NCBI GenBank assembly: GCA_016873655.1
Contig: VGWI01000001.1
Coordinates: 71,983 to 135,982, forward strand
Length of the DNA stretch: 64,000 nucleotides
DNA from: Lentisphaerota bacterium
GTDB taxonomy: Bacteria; Verrucomicrobiota; Kiritimatiellia; UBA8416; VGWI01
Direction: 5' to 3'
Of the stretch, positions 3,374-59,388 are shown piece after piece. Position numbers and translations under genes: made by a program. The stretch's first letter is position 1. Each line of letters opens with the position of its first letter. Under the pieces are notes generated by a model. That model was not told where the DNA came from. It searched no databases and worked only from the letters and a program-made list of their open reading frames with translations.

Positions 3374-3394
3374 CCGGCTCAGCCGGGTGCCGCC

Positions 3395-10141: not shown

Positions 10142-10162
10142 CGGCCGGACCGGAGCGACCGC

Positions 10163-34813: not shown

Positions 34814-35572
34814 ATGCCTCTTGGCGGATTGGACCTCAGGCGACTGGATCCGGAGTGTGCGCTGTCCCTGCGCAGCATGGCCGGCAAGATTGCTCACGAC
34901 ATGAACAACATGCTTGTTCCCCTTGCCGCATACCCCGAGTTGCTGCGGTGTTTTGTCGAGGGGCAGGACGAAGCGACTGGTTACATAGACAGCATGGAGA
35001 AGGCTCTGGACGGCATCACTTGCTTCATGCGAAGGCTGCTTGCGCTGTCCGGACGAGACCGCGGAGAGCGTGTCGTTCATGACATGAACGATATGGCTGT
35101 TGCGGCTGCGTCTGTGGTTTCCGAAGTGTGCCCGGGCATTGCGGTGGAATGCTCCCGTGGTGGTGAGACCGCCGCGATACTATGCGATATTGAGTCGCTG
35201 GACATGGCCGTTCGCGAGATATGCTCCAATGCTTTTGAGGCCATGCCGTCAGGCGGCAAGCTGCGGATATCGACCGGGCTCAAGTCGGAGAGCGGCGGAC
35301 GAACGAGCACCTGCGGGCTGCTGGTCCCTGCCGGAGAGTACGCGTGGCTTCGTGTGCAGGACTCAGGCCACGGAATGAGTGAAGGGGAAATGTCATCGCT
35401 CTTCTGCCCTCTTGAGTCCGCGAAGCACCGTGGCGGGCGGCGCGGCGCCGGCATGGGGTTGAGTCTTGTGTGGGTCACCGTAAGGGACCATGGGGGGCAC
35501 ATAGATGTCTCATCCGGCAAGGAAGGCACGACCGTTTCAGTGAGTCTGCCAACAATGCGGGAGGGCGTGTGA
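34814..35572 (+). CDS. cytoplasmic sensor histidine kinase (HisKA + HATPase_c)
   Basis: H-box IAHDMNNML. N, G1 (DSGHGM) and G2 (GMGLSLV) boxes. No TM segments. AAGGAG RBS. Confidence 0.75.
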   Translation: MPLGGLDLRRLDPECALSLRSMAGKIAHDMNNMLVPLAAYPELLRCFVEGQDEATGYIDSMEKALDGITCFMRRLLALSGRDRGERVVHDMNDMAVAAASVVSEVCPGIAVECSRGGETAAILCDIESLDMAVREICSNAFEAMPSGGKLRISTGLKSESGGRTSTCGLLVPAGEYAWLRVQDSGHGMSEGEMSSLFCPLESAKHRGGRRGAGMGLSLVWVTVRDHGGHIDVSSGKEGTTVSVSLPTMREGV

Positions 35573-35628
35573 CGGATGCGATTGAGTGTGTTGCGGTCGC
35601 GCGGCAACCGTGCAGGCGCGACAGAATA

Positions 35629-36003
35629 ATGATAGTGGATGACGAACGCGCCATCCGGCGTTTATTCAGCCTTATCCTCACCTCTGAACTCCCGGGACAC
35701 GAAATTGACATTGCAGAGGACGGCGGCCAGGCCGTTGAACTCTTCAGGCAGCGGCACCAGGGGCTTCTCCTTATGGATCTGCGAATGCCCGGGATGGATG
35801 GCAGGGCCGCATTTCTTGCGATAGAACAGGCGTGTCGGGAGTCGAACTGGGAGATGCCGTCTGTGGTTTTCTGCACCGGCTTCACTCCGCCCGAAACCGT
35901 ACGCAGGGTTGTCGAAGAAAGCTGCGATGTGCATGCCCTGCTGGCAAAGCCTGTAAGCAACGATGTCCTCCTGGATGTTGTGAAGCGGCGCCTGTCCCGC
36001 TAG
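35629..36003 (+). CDS. single-domain response regulator (CheY-like receiver)
   Basis: MIVDDE...LLLMDLRMPGMDG with the conserved Asp pocket and a downstream Lys (LAKP). Start refined to the ATG at 35629. Lies immediately downstream of the kinase. Confidence 0.75.
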   Translation: MIVDDERAIRRLFSLILTSELPGHEIDIAEDGGQAVELFRQRHQGLLLMDLRMPGMDGRAAFLAIEQACRESNWEMPSVVFCTGFTPPETVRRVVEESCDVHALLAKPVSNDVLLDVVKRRLSR

Positions 36004-36028: not shown

Positions 36029-36877
36029 ATGCGTGTTTTCAGCACCGTTCAATCAATGCGCGAATGGTCCGACTCATGCTTCCGCGCGGGTGAGCGCATC
36101 GGCTTCGTGCCGACGATGGGATGTCTTCACGAGGGGCATATGTCGCTTGTGCGGCTTGCTCGCGAGATGGCCGACGTGACCGTCGTAAGCATATTCGTCA
36201 ATCCGACGCAGTTTGGCCCTGGAGAGGACTTTGAACGCTATCCGCGGGTACTGGGGAGCGATCTGAGCATGTGCGAGGCAACGGGAGTGGATGCGGTGTT
36301 CACGCCCGCGGTCAGCGAGATGTACGCGGAGGACGCGTCCACAATCGTGGAAGAGGCCGCTATTTCCCGTGGCATGTGTGGCGCAAGCCGTCCGGGACAC
36401 TTCCGTGGTGTTGCGACGGTTGTGGCCAAGCTCTTTAACATCGTGAAGCCCGCCGTTGCGGTTTTTGGCCGGAAGGACGCACAACAGTTGATGGTCATTA
36501 AGCGGATGGTAAGGGATTTGAATTTTCCCGTTGAAATAGTTGCCGCGCCAATAGTCCGTGAGTCGGATGGGCTCGCGATGAGTTCCAGGAACCGATACCT
36601 GTCGGCCGATGAGCGCATGGTTGCGCTGGGCATAAACCGTGCTCTCAGGTGGGCAGAGGCCAGGTATGCGAATGGGGAAAGATCCGCGAGGAGTATCGCG
36701 GCGGGGATAGGTGAGCGGATTTCAGGAGGCGGGGTTGCGGTGCCTGAGTATGTGGAAGTCGTTGCGGCTGAAGATATGAAGCCTGTATCGGAACTTGGGC
36801 CGGGGATCATGATTGCTGTGGCCGCCCGTGTGGGAGCGACCAGGCTGATAGACAATGTGGTTCTTGGAGTAGTGTGA
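36029..36877 (+). CDS. panC: pantoate--beta-alanine ligase
   Basis: GFVPTMGCLHEGHMSLV HIGH-type motif and the FGRKDAQQL and SSRN motifs. 282 aa. Confidence 0.9.
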   Translation: MRVFSTVQSMREWSDSCFRAGERIGFVPTMGCLHEGHMSLVRLAREMADVTVVSIFVNPTQFGPGEDFERYPRVLGSDLSMCEATGVDAVFTPAVSEMYAEDASTIVEEAAISRGMCGASRPGHFRGVATVVAKLFNIVKPAVAVFGRKDAQQLMVIKRMVRDLNFPVEIVAAPIVRESDGLAMSSRNRYLSADERMVALGINRALRWAEARYANGERSARSIAAGIGERISGGGVAVPEYVEVVAAEDMKPVSELGPGIMIAVAARVGATRLIDNVVLGVV

Positions 36878-36878
36878 T

Positions 36879-37538
36879 ATGGGCGATACGGAGAGAGTTT
36901 GTCCGGCATGCGGGGCAAGAGTTCGGACGTCCGTAGCGGCACTCCGCTACGTTTGTCCGAAGTGCTCTCAACATGTTCAGCTACAATCGAGTGAGGCCGG
37001 CAGTGGCGACGAACCGCCGATGGATGTTCAGGCGCGCCGTCTCAAAGTCCGCGAAACGGTGGGGGCGAAGCCGGATGAGCCGGCGTTGAGCGTTGGCAGG
37101 GCCGGCGGGCGGTCCAAACCGATCCCGATCCGCCCGAAGCAGCGGCGTGTTTCGGGGGCCGTCTTCACCTTCTCGCACATTGCGAGCTGGGTGATATTCT
37201 TTGTGCTGGGCGGCATCATGGCTGGACTGCGCTACGGCGGGTGGTTGGATCCGGCGCGCCTCGAGATGATGAGGAGTGCGTCGTTCTACGTTGCGGCGGT
37301 GGTTCACGTGGTGGTGGTGCTGACGGTACTGCATGATTCCGTGCTGGCAGGGATAATCGGCCTGCTGCTTCCGCCGTACGCCCTGTACTACCTGTTTGCA
37401 AGGTCCGACAGGTTCTTCATCAGGGCGCTGGTCGCAGGCATTCTCATCGGCGTGGGGCAGGACGCTATGGCGACATTCAGCGCGCACTGGGTCAGGATCG
37501 TCGAGTTGGTCCATGCCTACATACGTTCCGGCGGCTGA
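36879..37538 (+). CDS. hypothetical membrane protein with N-terminal zinc ribbon
   Basis: CPACG...CPKC ribbon, a basic/Pro-rich linker, and 4 predicted TM helices. Starts 1 nt after the panC stop. Confidence 0.45.
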   Translation: MGDTERVCPACGARVRTSVAALRYVCPKCSQHVQLQSSEAGSGDEPPMDVQARRLKVRETVGAKPDEPALSVGRAGGRSKPIPIRPKQRRVSGAVFTFSHIASWVIFFVLGGIMAGLRYGGWLDPARLEMMRSASFYVAAVVHVVVVLTVLHDSVLAGIIGLLLPPYALYYLFARSDRFFIRALVAGILIGVGQDAMATFSAHWVRIVELVHAYIRSGG

Positions 37539-37541
37539 TCC

Positions 37542-37991
37542 TCACTCAGGGCGGACGCCCTGGGTCCGATCAAGACCTTCGCTCGTTCTGATCTTCTCCA
37601 TGCAGTCCGGGCAGAGCCCGTGCGAGAATGTGACAGCCGAATGGCTGGCGATATAGTCCTCCACCGCCTCCCACGCCTGGCGGCTTATGCGTACCCTGTG
37701 ACACGAAGAACACACGGTGACCAGGCTGGCGGCGAACTTTCTCTGCCGCAGGTAGGTGTTCCCGACCGTAAGGATTGCGGTTACCATGACGCCGCATGTC
37801 AAAACGGAACAGCCGAAGAAGTCCAAGCCCGACTTTTCGGTGCCGAATACAAGGTAAGGAAGATCAACCGTCCCGTTCGCCCATATGAGCAGTATCAGGA
37901 GGAGAAACGCCGCGAATTGCCAGAACGCGATGGCTGCAAAGCTCTTTGCTACGACGGGGATGCGTTCGACTACATCGGGTTCTGCGGGCAT
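37542..37991 (-). CDS. hypothetical small membrane protein with C-terminal Cys motifs
   Basis: Two TM helices followed by CSSCH and CPDC. Lies 30 nt downstream of the histidine kinase on the same strand. Confidence 0.4.
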   Translation of the reverse strand: MPAEPDVVERIPVVAKSFAAIAFWQFAAFLLLILLIWANGTVDLPYLVFGTEKSGLDFFGCSVLTCGVMVTAILTVGNTYLRQRKFAASLVTVCSSCHRVRISRQAWEAVEDYIASHSAVTFSHGLCPDCMEKIRTSEGLDRTQGVRPE

Positions 37992-38020
37992 CGTGATGCC
38001 TCCGTGTTGGGCCGTTACCG

Positions 38021-39697
38021 CTACTGCCTGGTCCGGCGCAGGGACAAGGCTCTTGCCTCCATCATCGCGAGGATGATCCGGTCCGGGGAAGCGAACTCCG
38101 GCGTGAAGACGACGTCGGAGATCAAAGCCGCCAGATCCCCTTCAGGTTCCCCGCAGACCACAAAACCGGTGCCAGGGCTGAGTTTGATCAGGGCCCTGAC
38201 TATGCCTGCCGCGCCGTGTTGAAGCATGCCTATGTCAAACACGGCGCCGTCAAGCGCCGGTTCTGACTCCATGAAAGCCAGAGAGGACGCTATCTCGCCC
38301 GCTCTTTCGACCTTCATTCCGAGCAGTTCCATGCGCTCGCGCAGGCCGGCGTGCTGTCTGGAAGTGGCCATCAGCACGTGCCAGTGGGACGCGTAGGCGG
38401 CGAGTTCCTGGGGCAATTCCGAACGGTCCTCAGTCAACGAGGATGGATCGGCAGCCGGCATCCATACAACGTAGACGGGTGACCTGTCCCTGCCTTGCAG
38501 GGAGTCGAGCCGGCCGCCGCACTCAGCAACCGCCGACTCGAGTACTGACTGAATGATTCCAGGCTCGGATCCCGGGGACTGATCGTGCACCTCTTCACCC
38601 GTATTCCGGCGTTCCGCGTCCCCGCCCTGCGATCTTATGACCACGGCGCCGGCATAGTCGCCTCTTCGTTCCAGCCCCAGTTCCGGATCAGTGGCGGCTG
38701 ATATGGTTACTGTGCCTGGAACATGGTTTGCATCCGCGGCAAGGAGGCCGAGGTTGAGGACCACCTGTTCCAGCTGTGCTCGTGGCATGCCTACAGGCGG
38801 AACGCTCTCGACACTCGTCTCGACCGTCCACCCTCTCGACAGTGTGTCGCGGAGTACCGCGGCGGCCATCTCGAGGGGGTCTCTGACGTCAATGGTTGGC
38901 TGCCACGAAACGGACGGTCTGATCAGGCCTAGCAGGCGCGCTGTGACCATCGACCCGTGCCGCGCGGACTGGTCGATGGCGCGAATCGAGGACGCGGATT
39001 CCTCGGACCCCGCGGGGAGCCTGGCAAGCAGCGAAGCGTGGCCGGCGATCGAGAACAAGAGTTTGCTGAAATCGTGAGCCACACCGTTTGCCATCTGTTC
39101 CAGGAGTTGAAGCCTGGCCACCTGGCGATTGCGCAATCGCGCCCTGTTCATCATTGTGATGTCGCTGATCATTACCACCGACAACCCTTCGGACTGCTGG
39201 GCTCTGAATCGCAGCGTGCGTTTCTGTCCGCCGAACTCGCATGGGCGCTCAAGTTCAACGGGGTCCGCCGGCCGGGCGAGAAGTTCGCAGTCGGCGTGTG
39301 TCAGGCACGGGAAGACGTCCCCGAGCCTGACGGTGCCTGGCACATCCGGAAGTGTGGCGAAGGATCTGGTCGCCGCGTTGAATCCCGTGACGCGGCCGCT
39401 GCGGTCGGCAGTGAGTATGGCATCCCTGAGGTGGTCGAGTTCCGTGACGAACTTGCCAACCCGTCTTCGCCCTTCGGCCTCGGCGGCCATACGGATACCC
39501 CAAAGGCCGAACGCGCCGGCGATGGACATGAAGCCGAGGGTCAAAGCCCACAACGCGGCTGATGTGGCGCGCGCCATGTCCGGCGACAGCCTGTCGTCCA
39601 GGAAATGCATTGTCTGAACGACGGCAAGAGATGCCGTGGCGAACAGAAGAAGAAGAAGGACGGCATATGCCCAGGTCTCTGACCTGAAGCCTCTCAC
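38021..39697 (-). CDS. membrane sensor histidine kinase with degenerate C-terminal receiver-like domain
   Basis: Two N-terminal TM helices. H-box VAHDFSKLL, an HATPase region, and a C-terminal roughly 170-aa receiver-like fold. GTG start overlaps the secretin TGA (GTGA). Confidence 0.75.
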   Translation of the reverse strand: MRGFRSETWAYAVLLLLLFATASLAVVQTMHFLDDRLSPDMARATSAALWALTLGFMSIAGAFGLWGIRMAAEAEGRRRVGKFVTELDHLRDAILTADRSGRVTGFNAATRSFATLPDVPGTVRLGDVFPCLTHADCELLARPADPVELERPCEFGGQKRTLRFRAQQSEGLSVVMISDITMMNRARLRNRQVARLQLLEQMANGVAHDFSKLLFSIAGHASLLARLPAGSEESASSIRAIDQSARHGSMVTARLLGLIRPSVSWQPTIDVRDPLEMAAAVLRDTLSRGWTVETSVESVPPVGMPRAQLEQVVLNLGLLAADANHVPGTVTISAATDPELGLERRGDYAGAVVIRSQGGDAERRNTGEEVHDQSPGSEPGIIQSVLESAVAECGGRLDSLQGRDRSPVYVVWMPAADPSSLTEDRSELPQELAAYASHWHVLMATSRQHAGLRERMELLGMKVERAGEIASSLAFMESEPALDGAVFDIGMLQHGAAGIVRALIKLSPGTGFVVCGEPEGDLAALISDVVFTPEFASPDRIILAMMEARALSLRRTRQ

Positions 39698-41445
39698 GGC
39701 TGAGCCTTTGTCTCCGAAGCCTTGCCGGTGTCTTCGGAGGGCTTCTTCTCTTCGGCTTCCATCTTCCTGATCAGTCCCTCAATCTCCGCTTCCATCTGCT
39801 TGCGCTTCGGGGAATCCTGGAGCAACTTGCGGTGAACGAGTGCGGCGTCTTCGGGCAGGCCCTGTTTCGGGCCTATACTCCCCGGCGTAGCGATGCCGAG
39901 GGTGACGAAAATTATCGTTTCCTGCTGGTTCTTCTCCTTGTGCGTATGCGAGAAGAGGAACCGGCCGATGAGGGGTATGTCTCCAAGGAGAGGAATTTTC
40001 TTTGTCCTGTCCCCCTCTGTCGTCTCCGTGAGGCCGCCGATGGCCACCGTCTTGCCGTTTTCGAGGCAGAACACCGTCTGTATCTTCTTGGTGGCGACGA
40101 CCGGGAATGTCTGGCCGTTAGGCGCTATCTTGTCTTCCAGGTAGCGGGTCAACTCCGGCTCTATCCTGACGGTGATATTCGAACTCGTGTTGATGGTCGG
40201 GGTCACTGTCAGTTTTACGCCCGTGTCAACCGGGTCGCCGGCGTTGTAGGTTACGAAGGGCGCCGTTGTTTCCGTCGCCGGGGTGACAACCGACTGGAAT
40301 GGCCGCTCACGCCTGCCGACATGTATTACGGCAGATTCCTCGTTAGCGACAATCAGCTTCGGATTTGAGACAATGCTGACTCCGTTCATCTGTTTCAGGG
40401 CGCTAAGGACCAGGCGGAAGTCATCCACGCTGAGCACCGAAGTGCGGATGTCGGCAATCTGCTTCACAAACGAATCTTTCACATCTTCGGTTACCCTCTG
40501 GTTCTGGTCGAGAGAGTCGGCGATCGTGTAAGTCGGTTCGATGCTGCGGATAGTAACCACCTCGCCATCCGGGCTTTCCTTGAAATCCACGGTTTCGTTC
40601 TGAATCTGCTTGCCGTAGATATCGTAGTACTTCCTGACCCCGTCGTTCGCGATCCTGTTGCCGGCACGCGAGTCTGCTGCTGCCACAGAGTTGTTGCGTG
40701 TCCGGTTTTCGGAATAATTCCAGTTGAAGGGGCTGGCTGAAGCGCCATAGCCCTCGAGCACCTGCCAGTTGATTCCGAGATCGCGGATGGCCGAGTCGTT
40801 CAACTCCAGGAATTTCGCCTCTATGAAGACCTGTTCGCGAAGCTTGTCTATTTCATCGATGACTCTCTCCACCTCGATACGGTTGGCTTCGGTTGTCTTG
40901 AGGACAAGCGCATTGCGCGACGGGAAGGCGGAGACGGCCGCGTTCTGCACGAGCAGGTTGCTGACAACCATGGAGACTTCGGGGACGGTTGCGTATCTAA
41001 GGAAGATTGTTTTGACCACCATCGGTTCCGGCGCGTCCGCCGGCTTGGGGACGATGCTGTACACTGCGGAGCCCGGCGTCTTCTCCATGAGCGCGAGATC
41101 ATGCATGTCAAGAATTGCCGTCAGGGCGGGTTTCCACTGAACATCGGTGAGGTTGACCGTGACGCGCCCTTCGAGATTTGTTGCCGAGGCCACTATGTTC
41201 GCGCCTGATATGCGGGTGAACATGCGCACCACGTCCACCAGAGCAACATCATCGAGAGTGATGCTGATGAGGTTGGCGTCGTTGGTTGTTGCCGGCAGGA
41301 CCGGTCCCGTATCGTCGGCGATGGCTACGAACACGACTTCATTCGATGCGGCCGCGGTTCCATTGGTCTGCGCGACGGCGACCCCGCGCAGCACGCCGAG
41401 AACCGAACACAAAGCAAGCAGGCACAATGGACGTATACTCTTCAT
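39694..41445 (-). CDS. secretin (type IV pilus PilQ / T2SS GspD family)
   Basis: Signal peptide MKSIRPLCLLALCSVLG. C-terminal secretin domain with PLLGDIPLIGRFLFSHTHKEKNQQETIIFVT. N-terminal repeated N-domains. Confidence 0.85.
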   Translation of the reverse strand: MKSIRPLCLLALCSVLGVLRGVAVAQTNGTAAASNEVVFVAIADDTGPVLPATTNDANLISITLDDVALVDVVRMFTRISGANIVASATNLEGRVTVNLTDVQWKPALTAILDMHDLALMEKTPGSAVYSIVPKPADAPEPMVVKTIFLRYATVPEVSMVVSNLLVQNAAVSAFPSRNALVLKTTEANRIEVERVIDEIDKLREQVFIEAKFLELNDSAIRDLGINWQVLEGYGASASPFNWNYSENRTRNNSVAAADSRAGNRIANDGVRKYYDIYGKQIQNETVDFKESPDGEVVTIRSIEPTYTIADSLDQNQRVTEDVKDSFVKQIADIRTSVLSVDDFRLVLSALKQMNGVSIVSNPKLIVANEESAVIHVGRRERPFQSVVTPATETTAPFVTYNAGDPVDTGVKLTVTPTINTSSNITVRIEPELTRYLEDKIAPNGQTFPVVATKKIQTVFCLENGKTVAIGGLTETTEGDRTKKIPLLGDIPLIGRFLFSHTHKEKNQQETIIFVTLGIATPGSIGPKQGLPEDAALVHRKLLQDSPKRKQMEAEIEGLIRKMEAEEKKPSEDTGKASETKAQP

Positions 41446-41469
41446 CTGTTCCTCCCGCCCCGGATTCCA

Positions 41470-42174
41470 CTATTGTTTTGGATAAGTCACTACCGCCGCA
41501 TATGCAATCTGGCCCGCAGCATCCACTCTCCAGACCGTGTTTGAGCCAACGGCACCGCTCGGGCTGGTCACCGTGTAGACTCCGGAGTTCGGATTGATCG
41601 TGCCAAGCGCCGGAATGGAAACGTTCCAGTTCCCGAGCGGTTCGATGCCACCCGAGGATCCGAAGTTGACGGCTGTTATGGTGAACGTGAATGGAGCGTT
41701 CGTCTGCGCCGCAGTGAGGGTTACCATGCCCGGTATTATCAGGAACGTTGTGTCCGCCGTTATTTCCGCCGATGCGGTCAGTCCTTCATCGTCGGTCACC
41801 GTGACACTGTTCGGCGCGACCTTGTTTGCTCCGTAGATCGCGGTGGCGGTGTTGGCGCTCACGCCGATGATGTCGCCGAACGCGATGTTTGCGGCCTGCC
41901 AGGAATAGGGAGGGGTTCCGCCCTTGACCGCGAATGTCACCTGCTGGCCGGCGAATGTCACGTTGTAGGTTTGGGGCACTATCGCGACTCCCTGTCCGAA
42001 CACGGGATTGCCGGGGTCGGCCAGTTCGTCCACGTCAGGCTGGTTGGCCCCGAAATAGGAGTCAATGGAATTGATGTCGCTGACGTCAGGGTCGTCCTCG
42101 CATCCACAGAACAGGACAGCCCCTGCAGCAACAATGGCAACCGCGGCCAACGCAACCGGCATCTTCAGTTTCAT
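41470..42174 (-). CDS. hypothetical lipoprotein with Ig-like beta-rich region
   Basis: Start refined to the ATG at 42174: MKLKMPVALAAVAIVAAGAVLFCGC has a lipobox. The Thr/Ala/Gly-rich beta-strand composition is typical of Ig-like domains. Sits between the PilP-like gene and the secretin. Confidence 0.5.
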   Translation of the reverse strand: MKLKMPVALAAVAIVAAGAVLFCGCEDDPDVSDINSIDSYFGANQPDVDELADPGNPVFGQGVAIVPQTYNVTFAGQQVTFAVKGGTPPYSWQAANIAFGDIIGVSANTATAIYGANKVAPNSVTVTDDEGLTASAEITADTTFLIIPGMVTLTAAQTNAPFTFTITAVNFGSSGGIEPLGNWNVSIPALGTINPNSGVYTVTSPSGAVGSNTVWRVDAAGQIAYAAVVTYPKQ

Positions 42175-42644
42175 GGCTTGGTCCTTTCTTCGTCCGTGCT
42201 CAGGCGATAATACAGTCTCTGGCTGAACACGCCCTTCTTGTTTATGTCCGTTATCTTCCAACAGTACGTTACACCGTTGCGGGTTATCCAGCCTGTACTG
42301 CCGGCTTCGACGAGACCGATTTCATCCAGCACGGCAATGTAACGTCCTGAGCGTGCCCGGGTTATGCCCTTCACCGTGAGAGAAGGCCATTCGATGGGAA
42401 CAGTTATCTCTGGTTCCTTTTCCTCTTCCAACCCGCCGTCAACAGAGTCCGGAGGGGGAGGGACATAGCCGACCGGCCAGAACGGGTCCCGCTCAACCAT
42501 TGATGGAGGCATGTTCGAGGCGCCGCCGGCTGCGTCTGGCGTTGCTTCCTCCGACGCGCGGCAGACGGAGACCTCGATGGCAAGGAGAAGGAGAATCGAG
42601 AAGGGAGTTCTCAATTTCGATCGTATTCCAGGCGGTGTTGTCAT
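42171..42644 (-). CDS. PilP-like pilus assembly protein (by position and size)
   Basis: 157 aa with an N-terminal signal/anchor. ATGA overlap with the upstream gene. Lies between a PilO-like gene and the secretin, as in pilMNOPQ operons. Confidence 0.4.
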   Translation of the reverse strand: MTTPPGIRSKLRTPFSILLLLAIEVSVCRASEEATPDAAGGASNMPPSMVERDPFWPVGYVPPPPDSVDGGLEEEKEPEITVPIEWPSLTVKGITRARSGRYIAVLDEIGLVEAGSTGWITRNGVTYCWKITDINKKGVFSQRLYYRLSTDEERTKP

Positions 42645-43294
42645 TGTTCGATGGCGCCTTCGGCCGCTTGAGCCACCAGCGTTTCCTCTGCTTCGGGATC
42701 ACCCCATATGGGCCACTGAACCCGGAAAGTAACACGATGCCGTTGCGGGTCGCGGTCATCCGACGTAACTTGCACTTTGGAGACGCACAAATACGGGTTC
42801 CCCGTCTCCACGCGGTTGAGAAGTCTGGCCAATGCATTCATGCTGCATTTAGCGGTTATTTCCGCCGTGTACGACTTGAAAGTCTTCTTCGGTTGATCCG
42901 GGCCGGCCGACGGCTCGCGAGTTTCCAGAACCGAAACGCCCAGTTCATTGATCGATTGTATGCCGGAATCAGGGTCGGTGCACTGCTCCATGTACCGCGT
43001 GGCGCCGATGAGGTAGTTGCCGTGCCGCGGTTTCAGAAGATACCGCGCCGATATGTCGCGGACTTCGTTTGCGATGGCTATGTTCTCGGCCCGGGTCGTC
43101 TCAATGCGCGATATCAGCACCGCAGAACTTCCAAGGTTCCTGTTGATCCTGTCCATGTCGTCGGTGAGCTTCTGATTCCTGGCCATGAGGGGACGAATCA
43201 GGCCGAAGGCTACCCCGTAGACGACGCCGATGGATCCGACTGCGACGAGCACGAGAACCTTGATGCGGTCGTTGCGGTTGTCCGGAAGCTTCAT
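42641..43294 (-). CDS. PilO-like bitopic membrane protein
   Basis: Single N-terminal TM (VLVLVAVGSIGVVYGVAFGLI) followed by a coiled-coil and periplasmic domain. 217 aa. Start overlaps the PilN-like stop. Confidence 0.5.
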   Translation of the reverse strand: MKLPDNRNDRIKVLVLVAVGSIGVVYGVAFGLIRPLMARNQKLTDDMDRINRNLGSSAVLISRIETTRAENIAIANEVRDISARYLLKPRHGNYLIGATRYMEQCTDPDSGIQSINELGVSVLETREPSAGPDQPKKTFKSYTAEITAKCSMNALARLLNRVETGNPYLCVSKVQVTSDDRDPQRHRVTFRVQWPIWGDPEAEETLVAQAAEGAIEQ

Positions 43295-43911
43295 CAGAAG
43301 GCCCTCGGCTTGTACCGGCAGCGTATCTCGAAAAGCCTGTCATCAGGAGATGCATTCTTAGACGTATCGGCTGAGAATGCGGCGACTTCGACAGACTCCA
43401 GCTGTGTCGCGAAGACGGAGAAAGTCCGCAAGTTCTGCTCCAATTCATCGACGGCAAGATCTGAGCCCTTGCCCACGGATCTGCCCCTGATCTGCATCGT
43501 GAAGCTGCGCGCCATGGCCTTGTCTTTCTCGAGGGTCAGAAGAACCTGATCGGTGTTCAATTCGACGAGCTGTATTGCCGGTGGCACGAGGCGTGGCAGT
43601 GCGGCAAGCTGGGTGTGCCAGACGATCTGAGAGCGACGCCAACCGTCGAGTTCTTCCTTGAGTCGCCTGTTGACGTTCAGCTCCGCCGCGATCCTGATGG
43701 CCATTTCCTGCTTCGGCTCCGCCTCCAGCCATTTCCTTTCCAGTTTGTCCACGGCGGCGGTCTTGTTCCACACGTGAACGGCGACGAACGCAAGAGACGC
43801 CCCGATCAGGACGGGTATGGAAAAGGCGATGACCTTCACCACGAATGCCGGCGTGAACAGGCTGGGGTTGCGCTGTTCTGACGGCAGGATAAGGTCAACG
43901 CGCAGATTCAT
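43294..43911 (-). CDS. PilN-like bitopic membrane protein
   Basis: Start refined to the ATG at 43911 (MNLRVDLILPSEQ, resembling the PilN INLLP PilM-binding motif), then one TM and a periplasmic coiled-coil. ATGA overlap with the pilM stop. Confidence 0.5.
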   Translation of the reverse strand: MNLRVDLILPSEQRNPSLFTPAFVVKVIAFSIPVLIGASLAFVAVHVWNKTAAVDKLERKWLEAEPKQEMAIRIAAELNVNRRLKEELDGWRRSQIVWHTQLAALPRLVPPAIQLVELNTDQVLLTLEKDKAMARSFTMQIRGRSVGKGSDLAVDELEQNLRTFSVFATQLESVEVAAFSADTSKNASPDDRLFEIRCRYKPRAF

Positions 43912-44918
43912 TTGGCCTCCAGCGTAGCCTGACAAGCTCCGATCGCCGCTGCAAACCTGGCCGGGTCGCCAATGTCCTCTCCCAAAACGCCTTCGGGAAC
44001 CGACGCGTGCTCAAACGGATTCCATCTTTCAACGTCGAATGCGGTTTGCATCGGCGTGATCAGGTCTCGTCCCGCCTCGACCGAGCCGGAGATGAACAGG
44101 GACCGGATGCGGCATGCTTCGCGGCGCTCCACGTAGTCTCTCGACACTGCGATTCGGTTCAGCATCTGCCCCGCAACGTCTCCCGCGATGTCGGAAACAT
44201 CGAACGCCCCGTCCGTCAGAACTCCCATTGCGGTTTGCGCATCGACTCCGAGCGATTCCTGTACGCGTTCGAGGATGCTGTGAGTGCCCAGTTCAAGGCG
44301 CTGGCAGAGCACCGGGATGCCTTTGCTGAAGACCGCGAAGTAAGAACACCGCTCTCCTATGTTCAGTGACGCGACCGCTTTTGCCTTGAAGGACATGCCC
44401 GGTCCGTTCGTGAACGCCGTCATCGCGGCGAGCCCGGCTATCTCGACAGAATGCGGGGCAGGTCTTCCGGACGGGAAAAAGGACAGTGCTCCTGATATCT
44501 CGTCCTCCGCAACCGCCGCGGCGAGAACGAGGGATTCCTGCCGTCCGTGTCCTTCCGTAATGACCTTGTATCCGATGCGACGGCCCGATGTGTCCCGGAT
44601 CCCCAAGCCTGTCACAAGGCGTGATTCCAGTCCGCCATCATGCAGGCCGGGCAGCATGAGCAGTTTCACTGTGGCTTCAGAGCCTTCTATTGCAATTGCA
44701 GCGTGCGGGGCGCGGAGCTTGGCCGGGAGCTCCATCGGCTTGCGCGCTTCTTCGGAGTCTTCGTTGGCACGTGGCAGCGCCGCGGCTGCCGACAGCGAGG
44801 TGGTCGCGCCGACGCGACGCATTCTTACAGCCAGCACGACAGTGCGCCTGACGTCGATGCCTACAACGTCAGCAGGCCCCTGCTTAACTTTGTCGAGAAT
44901 GTCTTTGAACGATGCCAT
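43908..44918 (-). CDS. pilM: PilM-like actin-fold pilus assembly ATPase-like protein
   Basis: 336 aa. The N-terminal VVGIDVRRTVVLAV phosphate-1-like motif matches the PilM/FtsA actin fold. It is the first gene of the pilMNOP-secretin array. Confidence 0.6.
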   Translation of the reverse strand: MASFKDILDKVKQGPADVVGIDVRRTVVLAVRMRRVGATTSLSAAAALPRANEDSEEARKPMELPAKLRAPHAAIAIEGSEATVKLLMLPGLHDGGLESRLVTGLGIRDTSGRRIGYKVITEGHGRQESLVLAAAVAEDEISGALSFFPSGRPAPHSVEIAGLAAMTAFTNGPGMSFKAKAVASLNIGERCSYFAVFSKGIPVLCQRLELGTHSILERVQESLGVDAQTAMGVLTDGAFDVSDIAGDVAGQMLNRIAVSRDYVERREACRIRSLFISGSVEAGRDLITPMQTAFDVERWNPFEHASVPEGVLGEDIGDPARFAAAIGACQATLEAK

Positions 44919-44971: not shown

Positions 44972-44988
44972 AAGCACGACGTGTGCCT
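44972..44988 (-). promoter_or_regulatory. candidate sigma-54 promoter upstream of pilM
   Basis: Minus-strand AGGCAC-acgtcg-TGCTT (GG-N10-GC), about 44-60 nt upstream of the pilM ATG. Confidence 0.3.
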
Positions 44989-45339: not shown

Positions 45340-46527
45340 TTGCAGGAGACGTGGTTGACCATGGATCATAAGAAGCAACTGTCGAAGACAATGAGGATAG
45401 ACCTCATTCCCGAGACTCCCATGGAGCCGGTGGAGGACAAGAAGACGCGCGTTGTGGTTGCGTCTTCAGGAGCGCGTGAGCCGGTCGACGGAGTTGGTGC
45501 GCACGGTCCTGACGCTTCCATCTATCAGCAGCTCCTTCACAGCCTCTACGACGCCGCAATCATCTGTGATGATCAGGGCGCGATACTGGATGTCAACGTG
45601 CGCGCCCTCGATTTCTTCTTATACACCCATGCAGGATTCTGCAGCCTTCACATATGGGACGTTGTTTCCGGCGCCGACGAGGGGTTGCTCAAGACCATCA
45701 TGGAGAACCTGTCGAACGAGAGGTTCACTCTTATTCAGGCTTACTGTATGCGCAAAGACGGACGGTATTTCCCTTCCGAGATAGCTGTCAGCAAACTCCT
45801 TGTGGCCGAGGGCCTCCGCTTGTGTTTCTACGTTCGCGACATCACCCTGCGGAGACAGGCTGAGGAAATGCTGAGAACGGAGCACAATGCGATCCAGAAT
45901 GCCGACAACGGCATCGCGGTGGCCAACATAAACGCGGAGATAGAGTACGCCAATCCCTCGATGCTGCGGATGTGGAACCTGCCGGACTTGGAAGCGGTAA
46001 TGGGAAAGAATGTGCGCGAGCTTCTGGTGTCCTCGCCGGATATCGACGAGATGCTCGCGGCCGTGACCGTCAAGGGGAAGAGCTGGGCGGGCGAGGTAAG
46101 TGGGCTGCGAAGAGACGGGGCCACGTTTGAAGTTCAGGTAGCGGCCGCGTGCAACAGGAACAGCGAAGGTGAGACAATCGGTATAGTGTTGTCCTTTGCC
46201 GACATAAGCGACCGGAAGCGCGCGGAGAAGGCGGAGATGGAGGCCGAGCGGCACCGGGTAATGCTCGAGAGTCTTGGAGCCGCGTGCCATCATCTGGGGC
46301 AGCCTGCGACCGTGCTGCTGGCCAACCTGGGCATGATGCAGGCCAAAGTGGACAGGTCTGATCCCGTTGTGGGCGAGCTGGTCGAGATGAGTATCGAGGC
46401 CGCCGAAGTGCTGGGAAGCATACTTCACAAACTCAACGAGGTCTCCGAGTACAAAACCACGAGATACCTTGCGGGCGCGGATGATGGCGGGGACGGCAGT
46501 GAGAGCAGGATCCTCGACATAGGTTGA
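45340..46527 (+). CDS. PAS-domain sensor protein with degenerate HisKA-like C-terminus (no ATPase domain)
   Basis: Two PAS folds, one around DAAIICDDQGAILDVN and one around NGIAVANINAEIEYANPSMLRMW. A C-terminal dimerisation-like helix, ESLGAACHHLGQPATVLL, lacks the canonical phosphoacceptor His context. CAGGAGACG RBS. Confidence 0.65.
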   Translation: MQETWLTMDHKKQLSKTMRIDLIPETPMEPVEDKKTRVVVASSGAREPVDGVGAHGPDASIYQQLLHSLYDAAIICDDQGAILDVNVRALDFFLYTHAGFCSLHIWDVVSGADEGLLKTIMENLSNERFTLIQAYCMRKDGRYFPSEIAVSKLLVAEGLRLCFYVRDITLRRQAEEMLRTEHNAIQNADNGIAVANINAEIEYANPSMLRMWNLPDLEAVMGKNVRELLVSSPDIDEMLAAVTVKGKSWAGEVSGLRRDGATFEVQVAAACNRNSEGETIGIVLSFADISDRKRAEKAEMEAERHRVMLESLGAACHHLGQPATVLLANLGMMQAKVDRSDPVVGELVEMSIEAAEVLGSILHKLNEVSEYKTTRYLAGADDGGDGSESRILDIG

Positions 46528-53838: not shown

Positions 53839-54177
53839 TTACAGAGCGTGAGCGTTCGGGCTTGTGACCGAGCAGCTCGGATCCGTGCCCATCGCCTGGT
53901 AGGTGTACGTGCCGCTGGCCGGGCAGACCGGAGTCGTGCCGCCCTTGATGTACGAATCAACAGCGGTCGTCACAACAGCCGCGGTGCCCGCGATGTTGTT
54001 CGCCATGGCCCACTGCTCCTTGGCGCTGTCAATCTGACGCAGGTTGTTGATGCAGGCGTTCTGCCTGGATGTGTCACGGGCCTTCACGAATGAAGGAATC
54101 GCGATCGCGGCCAGAAGGCCGATGATCGCCACAACAATCATGATCTCCACCAACGTGAAACCACTCTTCTTACTCAT
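53839..54177 (-). CDS. type IV pilin (major pilin candidate) with C-terminal disulfide-bonded D-region
   Basis: MSKKSGFTLVEIMIVVAIIGLLAAIAIP is the prepilin leader plus conserved hydrophobic helix, with Glu at +5. Two C-terminal Cys, CPASGTYTYQAMGTDPSC, are 17 residues apart. AGGAGG RBS. Followed by a strong terminator and preceded by a sigma-54-type promoter. Confidence 0.8.
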   Translation of the reverse strand: MSKKSGFTLVEIMIVVAIIGLLAAIAIPSFVKARDTSRQNACINNLRQIDSAKEQWAMANNIAGTAAVVTTAVDSYIKGGTTPVCPASGTYTYQAMGTDPSCSVTSPNAHAL

Positions 54178-54248: not shown

Positions 54249-54265
54249 AAGCAGGGCTTGTGCCA
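54249..54265 (-). promoter_or_regulatory. sigma-54 (RpoN) promoter of the pilin gene
   Basis: Minus-strand TTGGCAC-aagcc-CTGCTT with GG and GC spaced by 10 nt, about 72 nt upstream of the pilin ATG. A sigma-54 activator gene is adjacent. Upstream direct repeats GCAAGAT lie at 54297-54303 and 54310-54316. Confidence 0.5.
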
Positions 54266-54439: not shown

Positions 54440-55825
54440 CTATGCTTCCGAGTCGGGGAGCTTTCTGTAGAGTGTCGCGAGGCTTATCTTGAGAGCTTTG
54501 GCGGCTTCTTCCTTGTTGCCTCGAGTAAGAGAGAGCACTTGCTGCAGGTACTCTTTCTCCTTCTGGCGCAGGAAGGCTCTCAGAGATTTTCCTCTCTCTG
54601 CGTCCAGGGATCCTGGTTGGTTCTGTCCTGCCGTTGCCGGAGAGGGGGCTGACTTGGCTGACTCCACGACTTTTGCGGGAAGGTCACCGGGTTTGATTCT
54701 GCCGTCTGTGGCGAAGGCCAGCGCATGCTTTATCGCGTTCTCGAGCTCTCGCACATTGCCGGGCCAGTTGTAGATCTCCATCACGTGACTGGCTTCAGGA
54801 TCAAGTGTCGGAAGATCCTTGCCTTCAGGGGTTTCGGCTCGAATGACGTGGTAGATTAGAGGCAGTATGTCATCCTGTCTCTCGCGAAGGGGTGCTATCT
54901 GTATCGGGATCACGCTCAGGCGATAGTAAAGATCCTCGCGGAACTTGCCTTCCTGGATAAGGCTCTCGAGTTTGGTGTTTGTTGCGGCAAGGACCCGTGC
55001 ATCCACGGGGATGTTCTCGTTGCTGCCGACGCGCCGGACTTCCTTCTCCTGCAATACGCGGAGGAGTTTGCCCTGAATTGAGAGCGGCATTGACCCTATC
55101 TCGTCAAGGAAGATGGTGCCGCCTGAGACTGCCTCGAAAAGGCCCTGCTTATCGGAAGCGGCTCCGGTGAAGGCGCCTTTCACGTGTCCGAACATCTCGG
55201 ACTCGAGAAGTGGCTCAGGGAGGGCCGCGCAGTTCACGGCAAGGAACTTCTTTTCTTTGCGCGGGCTCTGCGTGTGTATCGCTTTTGCGACAAGCTCTTT
55301 GCCTGTGCCGCTCTCCCCATAGATGAGAATCGTGGTATCGGTCGGCGCCACCTTGCGGATCATCTCGCACACGTTCTTCATGGACGGGCTCTCGGCGATG
55401 ATGTTCTCCATGCGATACTTTGTTGTGAGCATCGCCTTGAGATCGGCGTTTTCGGTGAGTGCGGTACGGTAGGCGAGTGCTCTCTGGACGGTGATCAGGA
55501 GTTCATCGACCTTGAAAGGTTTCGTGACGTAATCAAACGCCCCGAGTTTCAGTGCCTTGATGGCGGTTTCGACCGAACCGTAGGCAGTGAGCATTATGAC
55601 GGAAGTTGAGGGCGAGTCGTGCCTCGCAAACTGAAGGATGTCCATGCCCCCGACTGGCTTCATGTAGATGTCGCAGAGCAAGAGATCGAAATCCTGCTCC
55701 TTGATCAGGGCCTGAGCTTTCTCGCCATTGTTCTCCGGCACGACTTCGTAACCTTCAGCACGCAGTATCGTGCTGAGCACGCTCAAGATGCTCGGTTCAT
55801 CGTCGACAACCAATATCCTGGGCAC
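54440..55825 (-). CDS. sigma-54-dependent response regulator (NtrC/PilR family: receiver + AAA+ + Fis-type HTH)
   Basis: Receiver domain (ILVVDDE...LLLCDIYMKP). AAA+ sigma-54 interaction domain with Walker A GESGTGKE, the GAFTGA motif and ESEMFGH. A C-terminal HTH. Likely GTG start at 55825 after GGAAGGAG. The ORF track's ORF starts at 55867. Confidence 0.85.
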   Translation of the reverse strand: MPRILVVDDEPSILSVLSTILRAEGYEVVPENNGEKAQALIKEQDFDLLLCDIYMKPVGGMDILQFARHDSPSTSVIMLTAYGSVETAIKALKLGAFDYVTKPFKVDELLITVQRALAYRTALTENADLKAMLTTKYRMENIIAESPSMKNVCEMIRKVAPTDTTILIYGESGTGKELVAKAIHTQSPRKEKKFLAVNCAALPEPLLESEMFGHVKGAFTGAASDKQGLFEAVSGGTIFLDEIGSMPLSIQGKLLRVLQEKEVRRVGSNENIPVDARVLAATNTKLESLIQEGKFREDLYYRLSVIPIQIAPLRERQDDILPLIYHVIRAETPEGKDLPTLDPEASHVMEIYNWPGNVRELENAIKHALAFATDGRIKPGDLPAKVVESAKSAPSPATAGQNQPGSLDAERGKSLRAFLRQKEKEYLQQVLSLTRGNKEEAAKALKISLATLYRKLPDSEA

Positions 55826-55965
55826 GGCAAGCGCTCCTTCCGTCGACCCTACCGCAGTGGCGGGCACGAGAGACGGTGACAGATGCAGAGTGTAGCGGGC
55901 GTATGATGCACGGTGGGGCTCCCAAGCGCAAGGGTATTTTTCTCATTTTTGGGAGAAGTGCGGTG

Positions 55966-56043: not shown

Positions 56044-56550
56044 CTATTTCAGGATGACGTAGATGTTATCGCTGTCATAGATGTTTCGGCCCCGTCCGTT
56101 GGGGCCGAACGAGCCCACGACTACTCTCATCCGATTGCCCACAAGGTAATCAGGGTCGAAGAAGTACGGGTTGCCCCACGGATCATTCTCGATTTCCGGT
56201 ACGTACGGACCCCTCCAGTTGCTGTATGCCGCAGTTGAGGAGAGGATGCCAGCATCGCTTGCCCTGAGGTCCCAGATTTCACGGTCTTGAGAAACGTTCC
56301 TGATCAGGGCTCCGGGCCAGCGCCCGGTGTCCCACGCAAGCTGTTTGATTCCGGCAGCCAGTATTTCCACTTCTGCCATCGCCTTCCGCTTCTTGGTCTC
56401 GGTGTTTGTCTTGTTCAGTGCCGGAATGGCTATCGCCAGCAGTATCATGACCACGCTGAGCGTGATCATGATCTCCATAAGGGTGAAGCCTGGCCCTGAT
56501 TGCCCTCGAGCGAAGGCACGACGCTCTGCTTCTTCAGTCGGAATGTTCAT
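56044..56550 (-). CDS. GspG-like pseudopilin (prepilin-type N-terminus)
   Basis: GFTLMEIMITLSVVMILLAIAIP N-terminus and the GspG hallmark NDPWGNPYFFD. Start refined to the ATG at 56550 (MNIPTEEAERR...). The ORF track's ORF extends to 56850. Confidence 0.75.
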   Translation of the reverse strand: MNIPTEEAERRAFARGQSGPGFTLMEIMITLSVVMILLAIAIPALNKTNTETKKRKAMAEVEILAAGIKQLAWDTGRWPGALIRNVSQDREIWDLRASDAGILSSTAAYSNWRGPYVPEIENDPWGNPYFFDPDYLVGNRMRVVVGSFGPNGRGRNIYDSDNIYVILK

Positions 56551-56600
56551 TATCGGACTCCTATTGTCCATCCCATGCGCAGAGGATATACTACATTGGA

Positions 56601-56617
56601 AGCAGGCTCGGTGCCAG
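56601..56617 (-). promoter_or_regulatory. sigma-54 promoter candidate for the GspG-like pseudopilin gene
   Basis: Minus-strand CTGGCAC-cgagc-CTGCTT, the same unusual CTGCT -12 element as the pilin promoter, about 50 nt upstream of the ATG at 56550. Confidence 0.45.
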
Positions 56618-56772
56618 AAGGCGGGTGGATCGGAAATAGGATCGCGACGCCGAATGGCATACTTCGTGAGCGAAACAAGTCGCAAGTGTTTGAACGTCTT
56701 CGGGTAGCGCGTTGTCATTATCGAGAACTGGATGGCGGGCAAGTCTCTGCTAGGTAGATGGTTGTGCAATAT

Positions 56773-56788
56773 GGCCCGAGAGTTGCTA
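56773..56788 (+). promoter_or_regulatory. sigma-54 promoter candidate for the divergent minor-pseudopilin operon
   Basis: TGGCCC-gagag-TTGCT on the plus strand, about 50 nt upstream of the ATG at 56839. Confidence 0.35.
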
Positions 56789-56838
56789 ATTGTTGTTGCA
56801 CATCTTCTCGGGTATTCAGGCAAGGAGCTGATGGCAGA

Positions 56839-57291
56839 ATGAGAAGGCACATCTCAACAAGAAGGTTGGTGTTTTGGCGCTGTGCCGGCAAGTGCGGTTT
56901 CACGATGATTGAGGCGCTTGTTGCCGTGACGATCCTTGGGTTTTTTGTCGTGGGCGTATGTGCTCTGGTTGTTACGACGCGGGAAACGATGGATACAGCG
57001 CGTGCTCACTACACGGCTTCCAACATAGCCAAGAACCGCATCGAAAGGCTTCATGCGCTGGTATTCGATGACCTGGCGCAGTACGCGGAGGCGGGGGTTG
57101 TCGTGAACGACTCCGGCATGCCGTCATCGTCCGGTAACTTCATGCGTACGACGGTGGTTTCCAACGTGAACGACAGGCTGTTTGACATCAGGTGCGTTGT
57201 TACCATGCGCAACCGGGTGTCGCTTGCTTTCGAGGGGGGGGGCGAGTCGGTGCAGACTCTTATTGCGCGTTACGAGGCCCCGGAACGATGA
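56839..57291 (+). CDS. minor pseudopilin (GspH/GspI-like; prepilin-type N-terminus)
   Basis: Basic leader followed by GFTMIEALVAVTILGFFVV. 150 aa. ATG at 56839. Stop overlaps the next gene's ATG (ATGA). Confidence 0.65.
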   Translation: MRRHISTRRLVFWRCAGKCGFTMIEALVAVTILGFFVVGVCALVVTTRETMDTARAHYTASNIAKNRIERLHALVFDDLAQYAEAGVVVNDSGMPSSSGNFMRTTVVSNVNDRLFDIRCVVTMRNRVSLAFEGGGESVQTLIARYEAPER

Positions 57292-59348: not shown

Positions 59349-59388
59349 ACATGGTGATCAGGGCCCTTGCAGGGGCAGGGAGGTAGCG

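Follow-up and report, generated by a model that had tools for sequence, protein, structure and literature searches.

Gene organisation of the operon

We analysed a stretch of 64,000 nucleotides (nt), here called the window, from the genome of an uncultured freshwater bacterium of the Kiritimatiellia (contig VGWI01000001.1) and concentrated on eight consecutive open reading frames (ORFs) of its minus strand (37542-44918), which are packed as one operon and include, directly behind a secretin gene, the gene of a membrane protein resembling a histidine kinase. Read from the sequence, the gene order is PilM, PilN-like, PilO/GspM-like, a protein in the PilP position, a lipoprotein, the secretin, the kinase-like protein, which we describe below as a pseudo-histidine kinase (pseudo-kinase), and a small cysteine-motif protein (Cys protein). 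Analysis of these sequences shows the predicted content to be a type-IVa-pilus-like alignment set together with a lipoprotein of two Ig-like domains, a secretin, the pseudo-kinase and the Cys protein. A first-pass annotation of this DNA, made from the sequence without database searches, had placed eight minus-strand genes here; our ORFs agree with it, as do independent gene callers, which found the same eight genes on public contigs (JGI sample 3300020074; NCBI metagenome-assembled genome (MAG), locus tags FJ224_).

We read every junction from the letters themselves. Between pilM and the lipoprotein gene there are four overlaps of 1–4 nt, with ATGA at the pilM/pilN, the pilO/PilP-position and the PilP-position/lipoprotein junctions and TGATG at the pilN/pilO junction; those from pilM to pilP had been described before, while the last ATGA had gone unmentioned. 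The lipoprotein and secretin genes are separated by 24 nt, with a Shine-Dalgarno sequence (GGGAGG) 6 nt upstream of the secretin ATG. The secretin and pseudo-kinase genes overlap by GTGA at 39697-39694, exactly as first annotated, and the Cys protein gene follows the pseudo-kinase gene, again as annotated, at a distance of 29 nt and not 30, with GGAGG as its Shine-Dalgarno sequence. A sigma-70-type consensus scan gave a weak promoter-like site upstream of pilM and detected nothing resembling a promoter or a terminator from 37542 to 43800 of the minus strand, the boundary between the secretin and the kinase gene included, where separate ones would speak against the single operon first proposed. 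Nothing in the window sequence contradicts a single operon. Sites resembling a sigma-54 promoter occur at chance level across the window (60 observed against 73 expected), and one of them at 44974-44988 upstream of pilM, with 2 mismatches to the pattern, was for this reason given no evidential value. An Rfam scan of the window returned no RNA family, and an antisense ORF at 42500-43549 (plus strand) was taken as non-coding because it lies inside the conserved pilN and pilO genes.

The kinase-like protein and its family

The pseudo-kinase gene (38021..39697, minus strand) encodes 558 aa from the GTG start that overlaps the secretin stop. This start is backed by homology, as the protein so begun lines up at its N-terminus with M1 of the consensus 'MRxFxxExWxYAVLL' derived from 106 homologues, and the later ATG chosen in one source annotation would remove the first transmembrane (TM) segment, TM1. 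Public labels range from hypothetical (NCBI) to 'histidine kinases' (JGI). In Pfam the window protein gives sub-threshold PAS and HisKA signals only, with no HATPase_c (PF02518) match at E <= 0.1 and no Response_reg match. A search of 5.8 billion proteins, in which 8000 candidates were scored, yielded at least 455 homologues, nearly all of them full length (about 555-600 aa) at 35-52% identity, and every named one belongs to a MAG of Kiritimatiellia, 'Lentisphaerae' or 'Verrucomicrobia'. In the 120 homologues listed, precomputed HATPase_c and Response_reg domains are absent. The NCBIfam family NF038348 'T2SS_HK' was considered as the possible family of this protein and rejected: its match of 16.7 bits (E 0.0019), confined to residues 253-337, falls short of the cut-off of 450 bits, and it was absent from the matches at E <= 1e-8 in 10 other family members.

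An alignment of the 106 homologues underlies the conservation counts given for this family as well as the AlphaFold2 (AF2) model, which has a mean predicted local distance difference test (pLDDT) score of 89.6. In the model TM1 and a short loop are followed by TM2, which continues into a long helix, and then by a PAS domain (93-179), a two-helix DHp domain (181-259), an alpha/beta CA-like domain (272-415), least confident at its lid, and a C-terminal (beta-alpha)5 domain (440-557) with the receiver fold. The CA fold is detectable by profile or structure comparison only. Conservation, expressed as the frequency of the top residue, is highest in DHp helix 1 (0.74), followed by the TM2/linker helix (0.64-0.69) and TM1 (0.61), and the TM hairpin is conserved across the family where the periplasmic loop is variable. 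Invariant residues outside the catalytic motifs are G55, G64, E148, R163, R165, D179, D209, E310 and G380. The architecture first proposed, with two TM segments, a short periplasmic loop and a degenerate C-terminal receiver, is thus reproduced by both the model and the conservation pattern.

Degeneration of the catalytic motifs

The register of the catalytic motifs was set by a profile alignment to the DHp-CA region of CckA (5idj, E 1.6e-24), which places the family sequence 'LNLGLLAAD' opposite 'MNLAVNARDA', a variable acidic stretch opposite the G1 sequence 'SDDGPGI' and 'EsGViqSV' opposite the G2 sequence 'GEGTGLGL'. At the position of the N-box Asn that coordinates Mg-ATP (the second Asn of NLxxNAxDA) the window protein has Leu319, and across the family this residue is Leu in 85 of 106 sequences and Asn in none, within a family motif, EQVVLNLGLLAAD, that is itself highly conserved. 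The G1 (DxGxG) box is not conserved in the family and of the G2 (GxGxGL) box only G380 is left. In real kinases the region of the ATP lid holds some of the best-conserved motifs; here the corresponding residues 355-378 form the least conserved segment (mean top-residue frequency 0.23) and are modelled with low pLDDT. As an internal control, the soluble kinase encoded at 34814-35572 in the same window keeps HATPase_c.

The phospho-acceptor position holds His in 81/106 homologues and N, Y, R, Q, F or D in the rest (24%), with Tyr in six family members. At 55% identity the sequences without the His divide into 19 clusters, about 13 with nearest neighbours that carry it, so that the His has been lost many times; PMC12632262 gives a figure of ~0.9% for HisKA domains in general that are without it. 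The adjacent D209 is invariant, and the window copy, reading AH208D209F, has both the acceptor His and the acidic residue of an H box. At H+4, 80/106 sequences have the Asn/Thr that the D/ExxT/N phosphatase motif calls for and 26/106 do not, the window copy having Lys.

The C-terminal domain was compared with five active-site features of receivers, taken in part from PMC12632262. Of these, one remains: D488, which ends beta-3, at a position that is acidic in 95/106. There is no acidic pair after beta-1, where positions 445-447 are G/R/A/T and P/S, the end of beta-4 is mostly Cys with Ser/Thr in 31/106, and no Lys follows beta-5.

On this alignment the family is shown to have lost the residues expected for Mg-ATP binding and for receiver phosphorylation and to tolerate loss of the phospho-His. 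With ATP-binding motifs lost, the His dispensable and strong conservation elsewhere, it falls within the class of pseudo-histidine kinases as section 6 of PMC12632262 defines it. The first-pass annotation had called the protein a sensor kinase, a description at odds with the family-wide loss of the N-box Asn, G1, G2 and lid, with the dispensable His and with the pseudo-receiver, and the phosphotransfer profiling it suggested for this protein would most likely return nothing.

Genomic association with the secretin

Related loci (numbered with an L) were collected from metagenomes by exact-protein look-ups and by a scan with an alignment of the N-terminal 186 residues specific to the family, which gave 26 true loci. 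A scan with the full-length family alignment was dominated by the generic H-box and gave 80 loci of ordinary CckA-like kinases, which we reused as a negative control. A secretin gene lies directly upstream of the pseudo-kinase homologue in 30/30 loci with upstream DNA, and none of the 80 CckA-like kinase loci (1.31 Mb) has a homologue of the secretin or of PilMNOP. The pilM, pilN, pilO and PilP-position genes precede the secretin/pseudo-kinase pair wherever the contig is long enough, with the exception of L003, a distant relative on a 1.1-Mb contig, which has the pair without pilMNOP. The adjacency of the two genes is kept despite rearrangements on both sides. Of the first-pass proposal of a sensor kinase tied to the pilus machinery, therefore, the gene linkage holds (30/30 against 0/80) and the kinase identity does not.

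In L003 the place of pilMNOP before the pair is taken by three LamG-domain proteins (1162-11806), one of them of 1610 aa, and the pair is followed by insertion sequence elements and a DruA-type gene.

Between orthologous secretin and pseudo-kinase genes the gaps, with orthologue start codons inferred by alignment, run from 4 to 189 nt (median about 29) and are 15 nt or less in 13/29. The 4-nt overlap is special to the window and close coupling is common; the translational overlap with the secretin that was first proposed is borne out by the GTGA of the window and is not a trait of the family.

Other proteins of the operon

The first gene encodes a PilM-like cytoplasmic actin-fold protein of 336 aa (43908..44918, minus strand, as are all genes of the operon) that matches TIGR01175 at E 1.7e-5, below the cut-off. 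Its orthologues in L002 and L004 carry PF11104 PilM_2, and orthologues are present upstream in every locus with a sufficiently long contig. The PilN-like protein (43294..43911, 205 aa), a bitopic membrane protein, had no Pfam or NCBIfam match; PF05137 PilN is weakly matched by 4/13 of its orthologues (best E 0.001). A conserved N-terminal 'MNLRVDLILxSEQR' seems to resemble the PilM-binding INLLP motif. The next protein (42641..43294, 217 aa), predicted to lie in the membrane, scores at the cut-off for PF10741 T2SSM_b (21.7 bits) and below it for NF040576 GspM (E 3.5e-10), with no PilO match, and is here called PilO/GspM-like.

The 157-aa protein in the PilP position (42171..42644) has a signal peptide, an RDPFWP(V/I)G motif of which RDPFWP is invariant, and a small conserved C-terminal beta domain (alignment A5). 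Searches of Pfam, NCBIfam and PDB sequences, including one with a 12-sequence profile, matched nothing to this family, and its orthologues have no conserved lipobox Cys, so that the features of PilP as an inner-membrane lipoprotein with a PilP/HR domain are not seen. We infer a PilP/GspC-like identity from position and motif alone; the family may represent a divergent PilP/GspC-type HR-domain protein or a new component of the alignment complex. PDB profile searches with the PilN-like and the PilP-position families gave chance-level matches only.

The secretin (39694..41445, 583 aa) is of the PilQ/GspD type (PF00263, E 7.4e-35). The models TIGR02515 PilQ and TIGR02517 GspD tie at ~171 bits, both below cut-off, and the best PDB matches are Neisseria PilQ (6.5e-27) and GspD (2.6e-25). 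A PilM-like protein and a PilQ/GspD-superfamily secretin are thus found within one operon. No PilB, PilC or PilT was found among the 48 larger ORFs scanned in the window, which covers part of the genome; in L002, T2SSF adjoins the pilus cluster. Of the pilus names assigned at first, that of the secretin stands on PF00263 and that of PilM, weak in the window protein, gains from PF11104 in its orthologues, while the others are less secure, with PilO matching GspM, PilN weak and PilP unsupported by hidden Markov model (HMM) or PDB searches.

Between the PilP-position and secretin genes lies a gene for a periplasmic lipoprotein of 234 aa with two Ig-like repeats (41470..42174), whose start we place at ATG 42174 and not at the upstream TTG of the raw ORF because of the ATGA overlap with the preceding gene. 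A homologue search gave 4 proteins and orthologues were therefore drawn from the related loci. The lipobox '..GCE[DE]' at the end of the signal peptide is conserved in 13 full-length orthologues, each of the two repeats of ~80 aa carries a GG.pPY.W motif, two Pfam families of Ig-like domains, PF26182 and PF06832, are matched by the homologue P0145, and the L004 orthologue matches PF26182 faintly. The lipobox protein of Ig-like composition described in the first-pass annotation is confirmed by these features; the suggestion that a pilotin or secretin accessory could be expected at its position is a different matter, no evidence here supporting the pilotin role. The gene is found between the PilP-position and secretin genes in 15/22 informative loci (window included) and is missing from six of the 21 related ones, which keep the rest of the operon. 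It is a common, optional periplasmic accessory, probably of the secretin or PilP ring.

The last gene encodes the Cys protein (37542..37991, 149 aa), which has two TM segments and a predicted cytoplasmic C-terminal Cys4/His module. C94, C97, H124, C127 and C130 are invariant (family alignment A3), and in the AF2 model the TM helices (13-42 and 58-89) have pLDDT values above 90 and the module values of 51-68, of low confidence. Both the two TM segments and the terminal CSSCH...SHGLCPDC of the first-pass description are borne out. Its place in the operon array is not general, as among relatives the protein, a family of 22 in our homologue search, follows the pseudo-kinase in the close relatives L113 and L114 only (56-63% identity); judged on these sequences it is apparently a recent, sublineage-specific add-on.

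When the last 63 residues were compared with 1.84 billion cluster representatives using HMMER we obtained 16,267 matches at E <= 0.001, nearly all of them C-terminal, with a few proteins carrying the module twice. The module, of ~45 residues (window 37542-37700), has the motif C-x2-C-[HK][KR][VI]R...W...E.Y...FSHG-x-CP-x-C. In ten matches that were scanned it is preceded by PAS, REC, MASE3, MASE6, Reg_prop/Y_Y_Y or dCache and stands where an output domain would be expected; a weaker relative gave a sub-threshold MASE7 match. No Pfam or NCBIfam model matched the module and a literature search by motif string found no paper.

Convergent to the Cys protein gene is a gene (36879..37538, plus strand) for a 219-aa membrane protein with an N-terminal CPxC..CPxC zinc-ribbon-like motif, a C-terminal multi-TM region and no Pfam match. 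The two stop codons are 3 nt apart and leave no room for terminators. The two genes occur together in L113 and L114 and at no other locus, as if they had been inserted jointly between the pseudo-kinase gene and panC.

Regulatory genes near the operon

Downstream of the operon and convergent to it, panC (36029-36877, plus strand) directly follows a gene for a canonical single-domain CheY-like response regulator (35569..36003, plus strand; PF00072, E 3.8e-17) in which the DD, D, T and K residues are visible. Of the related loci, 15 have a convergent panC downstream of the pseudo-kinase gene and 12 have the CheY-like gene there. Overlapping the start of the CheY-like gene is a gene (34814..35572, plus strand) for a sensor-less soluble histidine kinase of 252 aa with DHp and an intact HATPase_c domain (PF02518, E 5e-16), homologues of which occur in 5 related loci only.

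A PilR-like REC-sigma54 activator (54440-55867, minus strand; PF00158 2.7e-73, PF00072 2.8e-28) with an intact receiver and a GAFTGA motif is encoded directly upstream of a sigma-54-type promoter-like site, TGGCACAAGCCCTGC (54251-54265, minus strand, 1 mismatch). This site lies 74 nt upstream of the ATG of a type IV pilin gene (53839-54177, minus strand; 112 aa, N_methyl 6.5e-9, G|FTLVE leader), 9 kb from the operon, and of the sites matching the sigma-54 pattern in the window it is the only one that is positionally meaningful. No gene for a PilS-type kinase is adjacent to that of the PilR-like activator. In L002 and L100 the genes for this enhancer-binding protein (EBP), the pilin, a PAS protein, pilMNOPQ and the pseudo-kinase are contiguous, which suggests a single ancestral cluster that would have been split by about 9 kb in the window. 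The sigma-54 activator had at first been described as unlinked, a view that these two loci do not support.

Divergent from pilM is a gene (45340..46527, plus strand) for a PAS-PAS protein with a NifL-like H-domain, PAS matches in Pfam and no ATPase domain. NifL (9qq6, E 1.2e-5) is its top match in the PDB, and a second, weak stretch of that match (7.3 bits) pairs LGAACHHLGQPATVLL with the H domain of NifL. L002, L100, L113 and L114 each have a homologue or, in the corresponding place, a protein with a PAS call. It is a second protein resembling a kinase relic that is clustered with the sigma-54 activator. Elsewhere in the window an 810-aa eukaryotic-type Ser/Thr protein kinase with a double zinc-ribbon insert (60620-63052, minus strand) is encoded near minor-pilin-like genes (56044-60537; T2SSG-like, DUF7305-like).

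Possible modes of action

We think it reasonably probable that the pseudo-kinase is a non-autophosphorylating, machine-coupled signalling adaptor that would act through protein contacts. In such a scheme the protein would be made together with the secretin and the alignment proteins, its TM hairpin and PAS domain would read the state of the membrane or of the machine (the pilin pool, PilN/PilO or secretin assembly), and its DHp domain would then bind, sequester or dephosphorylate a response regulator, in a manner resembling DivL, RetS, NifL or PilS in its phosphatase mode. Candidate partners would be the PilR-like sigma-54 activator, whose gene adjoins the sigma-54-promoted pilin gene, and the convergently encoded CheY-like regulator. 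In real kinases response regulators dock on DHp helix 1, and the conservation of this helix, of the TM hairpin and of the PAS core, with the invariant E148, R163, R165 and D179, suggests an intramembrane or cytoplasmic input and regulator docking on the DHp domain.

Several observations weigh against this adaptor role or some part of it. The window copy keeps His208 and Asp209, leaving phosphotransfer by this copy possible, and the CA fold may possibly bind a nucleotide in a non-canonical way. The Lys at H+4 in the window copy argues against the phosphatase variant of the scheme for this copy. As for the genomic context, orthologues with gaps as long as 189 nt could accommodate separate promoters and the promoter scan, being limited to a sigma-70-type consensus, is weak evidence; of the ~20 loci with downstream DNA, 5 have no CheY/panC neighbourhood, and the EBP gene is adjacent in 2 related loci only.

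More tentatively, the pseudo-kinase may be a stoichiometric, non-enzymatic subunit or sensor of the machine, with a binding-only relay through its DHp domain and pseudo-receiver to a regulator of sigma-54-dependent pilin expression or of pilus dynamics. Here the TM hairpin would contact a component of the machine or the pilin pool and the signalling would be of the reverse kind known from DivL. If this were true, the operon would represent the first pilus or secretin system with a built-in, phosphorylation-independent two-component relic as a feedback device, present throughout a phylum-level clade.

Retention of the His in 76% of the family and in the window copy would fit a membrane-bound phosphotransferase of the ChpT/Spo0B type, in which His208 is phosphorylated in trans, for example by the soluble kinase at 34814-35572, and the phosphate relayed under the control of the PAS and TM segments. 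ChpT and Spo0B likewise pair a DHp His with an ATP-blind CA-like domain, and the sensor-less kinase and the CheY-like protein are encoded about 2 kb away. A phosphotransferase needs its His, however, and 25/106 homologues are without it yet keep the other conserved features and the synteny (for example P0046 in L002, with Phe), and the soluble kinase is found in 5 related loci only, so that we regard this role as unlikely.

The invariant D209, the Asn/Thr at H+4 in 80/106 homologues and the position of DHp helix 1 as the most conserved segment are what one would expect of a dedicated phosphatase or phosphate sink, in effect a PilS locked in phosphatase mode that keeps the PilR-like or CheY-like regulator unphosphorylated in a given state of the machine or the pilin pool. 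The loss of the His would be no obstacle, as according to PMC12632262 HisKA phosphatase activity does not require it. Against such a role stand the Lys at H+4 in the window copy and the absence of Asn/Thr there in 26/106 homologues. In well-studied bifunctional kinases, moreover, phosphatase activity is stimulated by nucleotide bound to the CA domain, and the nucleotide pocket is degenerate in this family; an enzyme of this kind seems rather improbable.

That the protein is a working hybrid sensor kinase, which would autophosphorylate on His208, pass phosphate to the PilR-like activator or the CheY-like protein and follow the pilus machine in dosage, is very unlikely. The window protein does keep H208 and D209, its DHp domain is clearly CckA-like and a PilR-like activator with an intact receiver is available with no adjacent PilS, but the N-box Asn, G1, G2 and lid are absent from all 106 homologues, no HATPase_c domain is found in the 120 homologues listed, the His has been lost many separate times and the receiver is without the acidic pair and the Lys.

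We give equally little weight to a secretin monitor, an inner-membrane sensor of secretin production or mislocalisation comparable with PspB/PspC and their sigma-54 activator PspF. The secretin/pseudo-kinase pair is the invariant unit of these loci and in L003 has no pilMNOP nearby, as would follow if the secretin itself were monitored; a sigma-54 activator belongs to the ancestral cluster, and the TM hairpin is conserved where the periplasmic loop is not. The pseudo-kinase has no homology to Psp proteins, however, and the argument rests on the gene order of one locus without pilMNOP. Finally, mere inheritance of the gene order, with the kinase-like gene as a decaying remnant functionally unconnected to the secretin, would account for the degenerate catalytic motifs and for gaps that reach 189 nt in orthologues but is hardly credible for a family of at least 455 homologues conserved over their full length at 35-52% identity, with invariant non-catalytic residues, a predicted fold of high confidence and adjacency to the secretin gene in 30/30 loci despite rearrangements on both sides.

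The favoured role of the pseudo-kinase as a signalling adaptor would be of wider relevance, as recognition of the pseudo-histidine kinases as a class (DivL, RetS, PsmA) is recent and the cellular partner is known for few of them. Here the gene order of a family several hundred strong points to a partner machine, a type IV pilus or type II-like secretin, providing a concrete system in which to ask how a kinase relic may signal without phosphate, and it bears on how pilus or secretin assembly might be reported back to gene expression in Kiritimatiellia. The annotation of these genes calls for caution in either direction, as they are neither 'histidine kinases' (JGI) nor merely 'hypothetical' (NCBI). 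The Cys4/His module of the last gene provides a second lead: over 16,000 protein clusters contain it, at the position at which signalling proteins have their output domains.

Relation to known systems

Pilus-linked two-component systems and pseudo-histidine kinases are both known already. A pseudo-hybrid-kinase fixed behind a secretin gene across a phylum was not found in the searchable literature, searches on pilus-linked pseudokinases or Kiritimatiellia pili found nothing relevant, and we know of no pilus genetics for Kiritimatiellia.

The operon shares with canonical pilMNOPQ operons the gene order, the overlapping stops and starts and the presence nearby of a type IV pilin and a PilR-like regulator. 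It differs from them in the extra Ig-like lipoprotein, in a PilP-position protein with neither a lipobox nor a PilP HMM match, in a PilO that scores as GspM, in two extra signalling-type genes after the secretin, and in having no pilus ATPase or platform gene in the window.

The PilS-PilR system of Pseudomonas and Myxococcus is similar in that a membrane protein of HisKA type is encoded near pilus genes and a sigma-54 REC activator beside a sigma-54-promoted pilin gene. PilS senses pilin within the membrane and, as long as pilin is plentiful, works chiefly as a phosphatase. It has six TM segments and a functional ATPase domain and is encoded beside pilR, whereas the pseudo-kinase has two TM segments and a dead CA domain and is encoded after the secretin, ~15 kb from the PilR-like gene, so that only the PilR/sigma-54/pilin half of the system is present.

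In sequence the best relatives of the pseudo-kinase are hybrid kinases of the CckA type (NF046026/NF046020; 5idj), with which it shares the H-box 'GVAHDFNNLL', the PAS-DHp-CA-REC order and the fold. It reaches at most 93 bits against a cut-off of 1000, has lost the N-box Asn, G1, G2, the lid and the receiver active site, is anchored by a two-TM hairpin and has its gene fixed behind a secretin gene.

PsmA of Streptomyces (PMC12963549) is a hybrid-HK-like (histidine kinase-like) pseudokinase of the polarisome that modulates a multiprotein machine. Like the family described here, it varies at the His position and combines degenerate ATP motifs with an ATP-incompatible lid. It belongs to another lineage and another machine, and the present family keeps the His in 76% of its members and DxxN in most.

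Models of stoichiometric inhibition are provided by NifL, the PAS-PAS-H-GHKL anti-activator of NifA, and by RetS, a hybrid kinase that blocks GacS without autophosphorylating itself. Binding of adenine nucleotide is retained in NifL, and neither NifL nor RetS is known to share with the pseudo-kinase a simple-hairpin membrane anchor or linkage to a secretin.

DivL of Caulobacter, in which Tyr replaces the His, signals in reverse from DivK~P to CckA and keeps a nucleotide-binding CA domain. It is not known to be tied to a pilus or secretin operon, and it differs further from the window copy, which keeps the His, and from the family as a whole, whose CA domain is without ATP motifs. DivL and the pseudo-kinase are alike in being derived from histidine kinases, with DivL functioning without autophosphorylation as is proposed here, in the Tyr that six family members have at the His position, and in the single-domain CheY-like regulator encoded near the pseudo-kinase.

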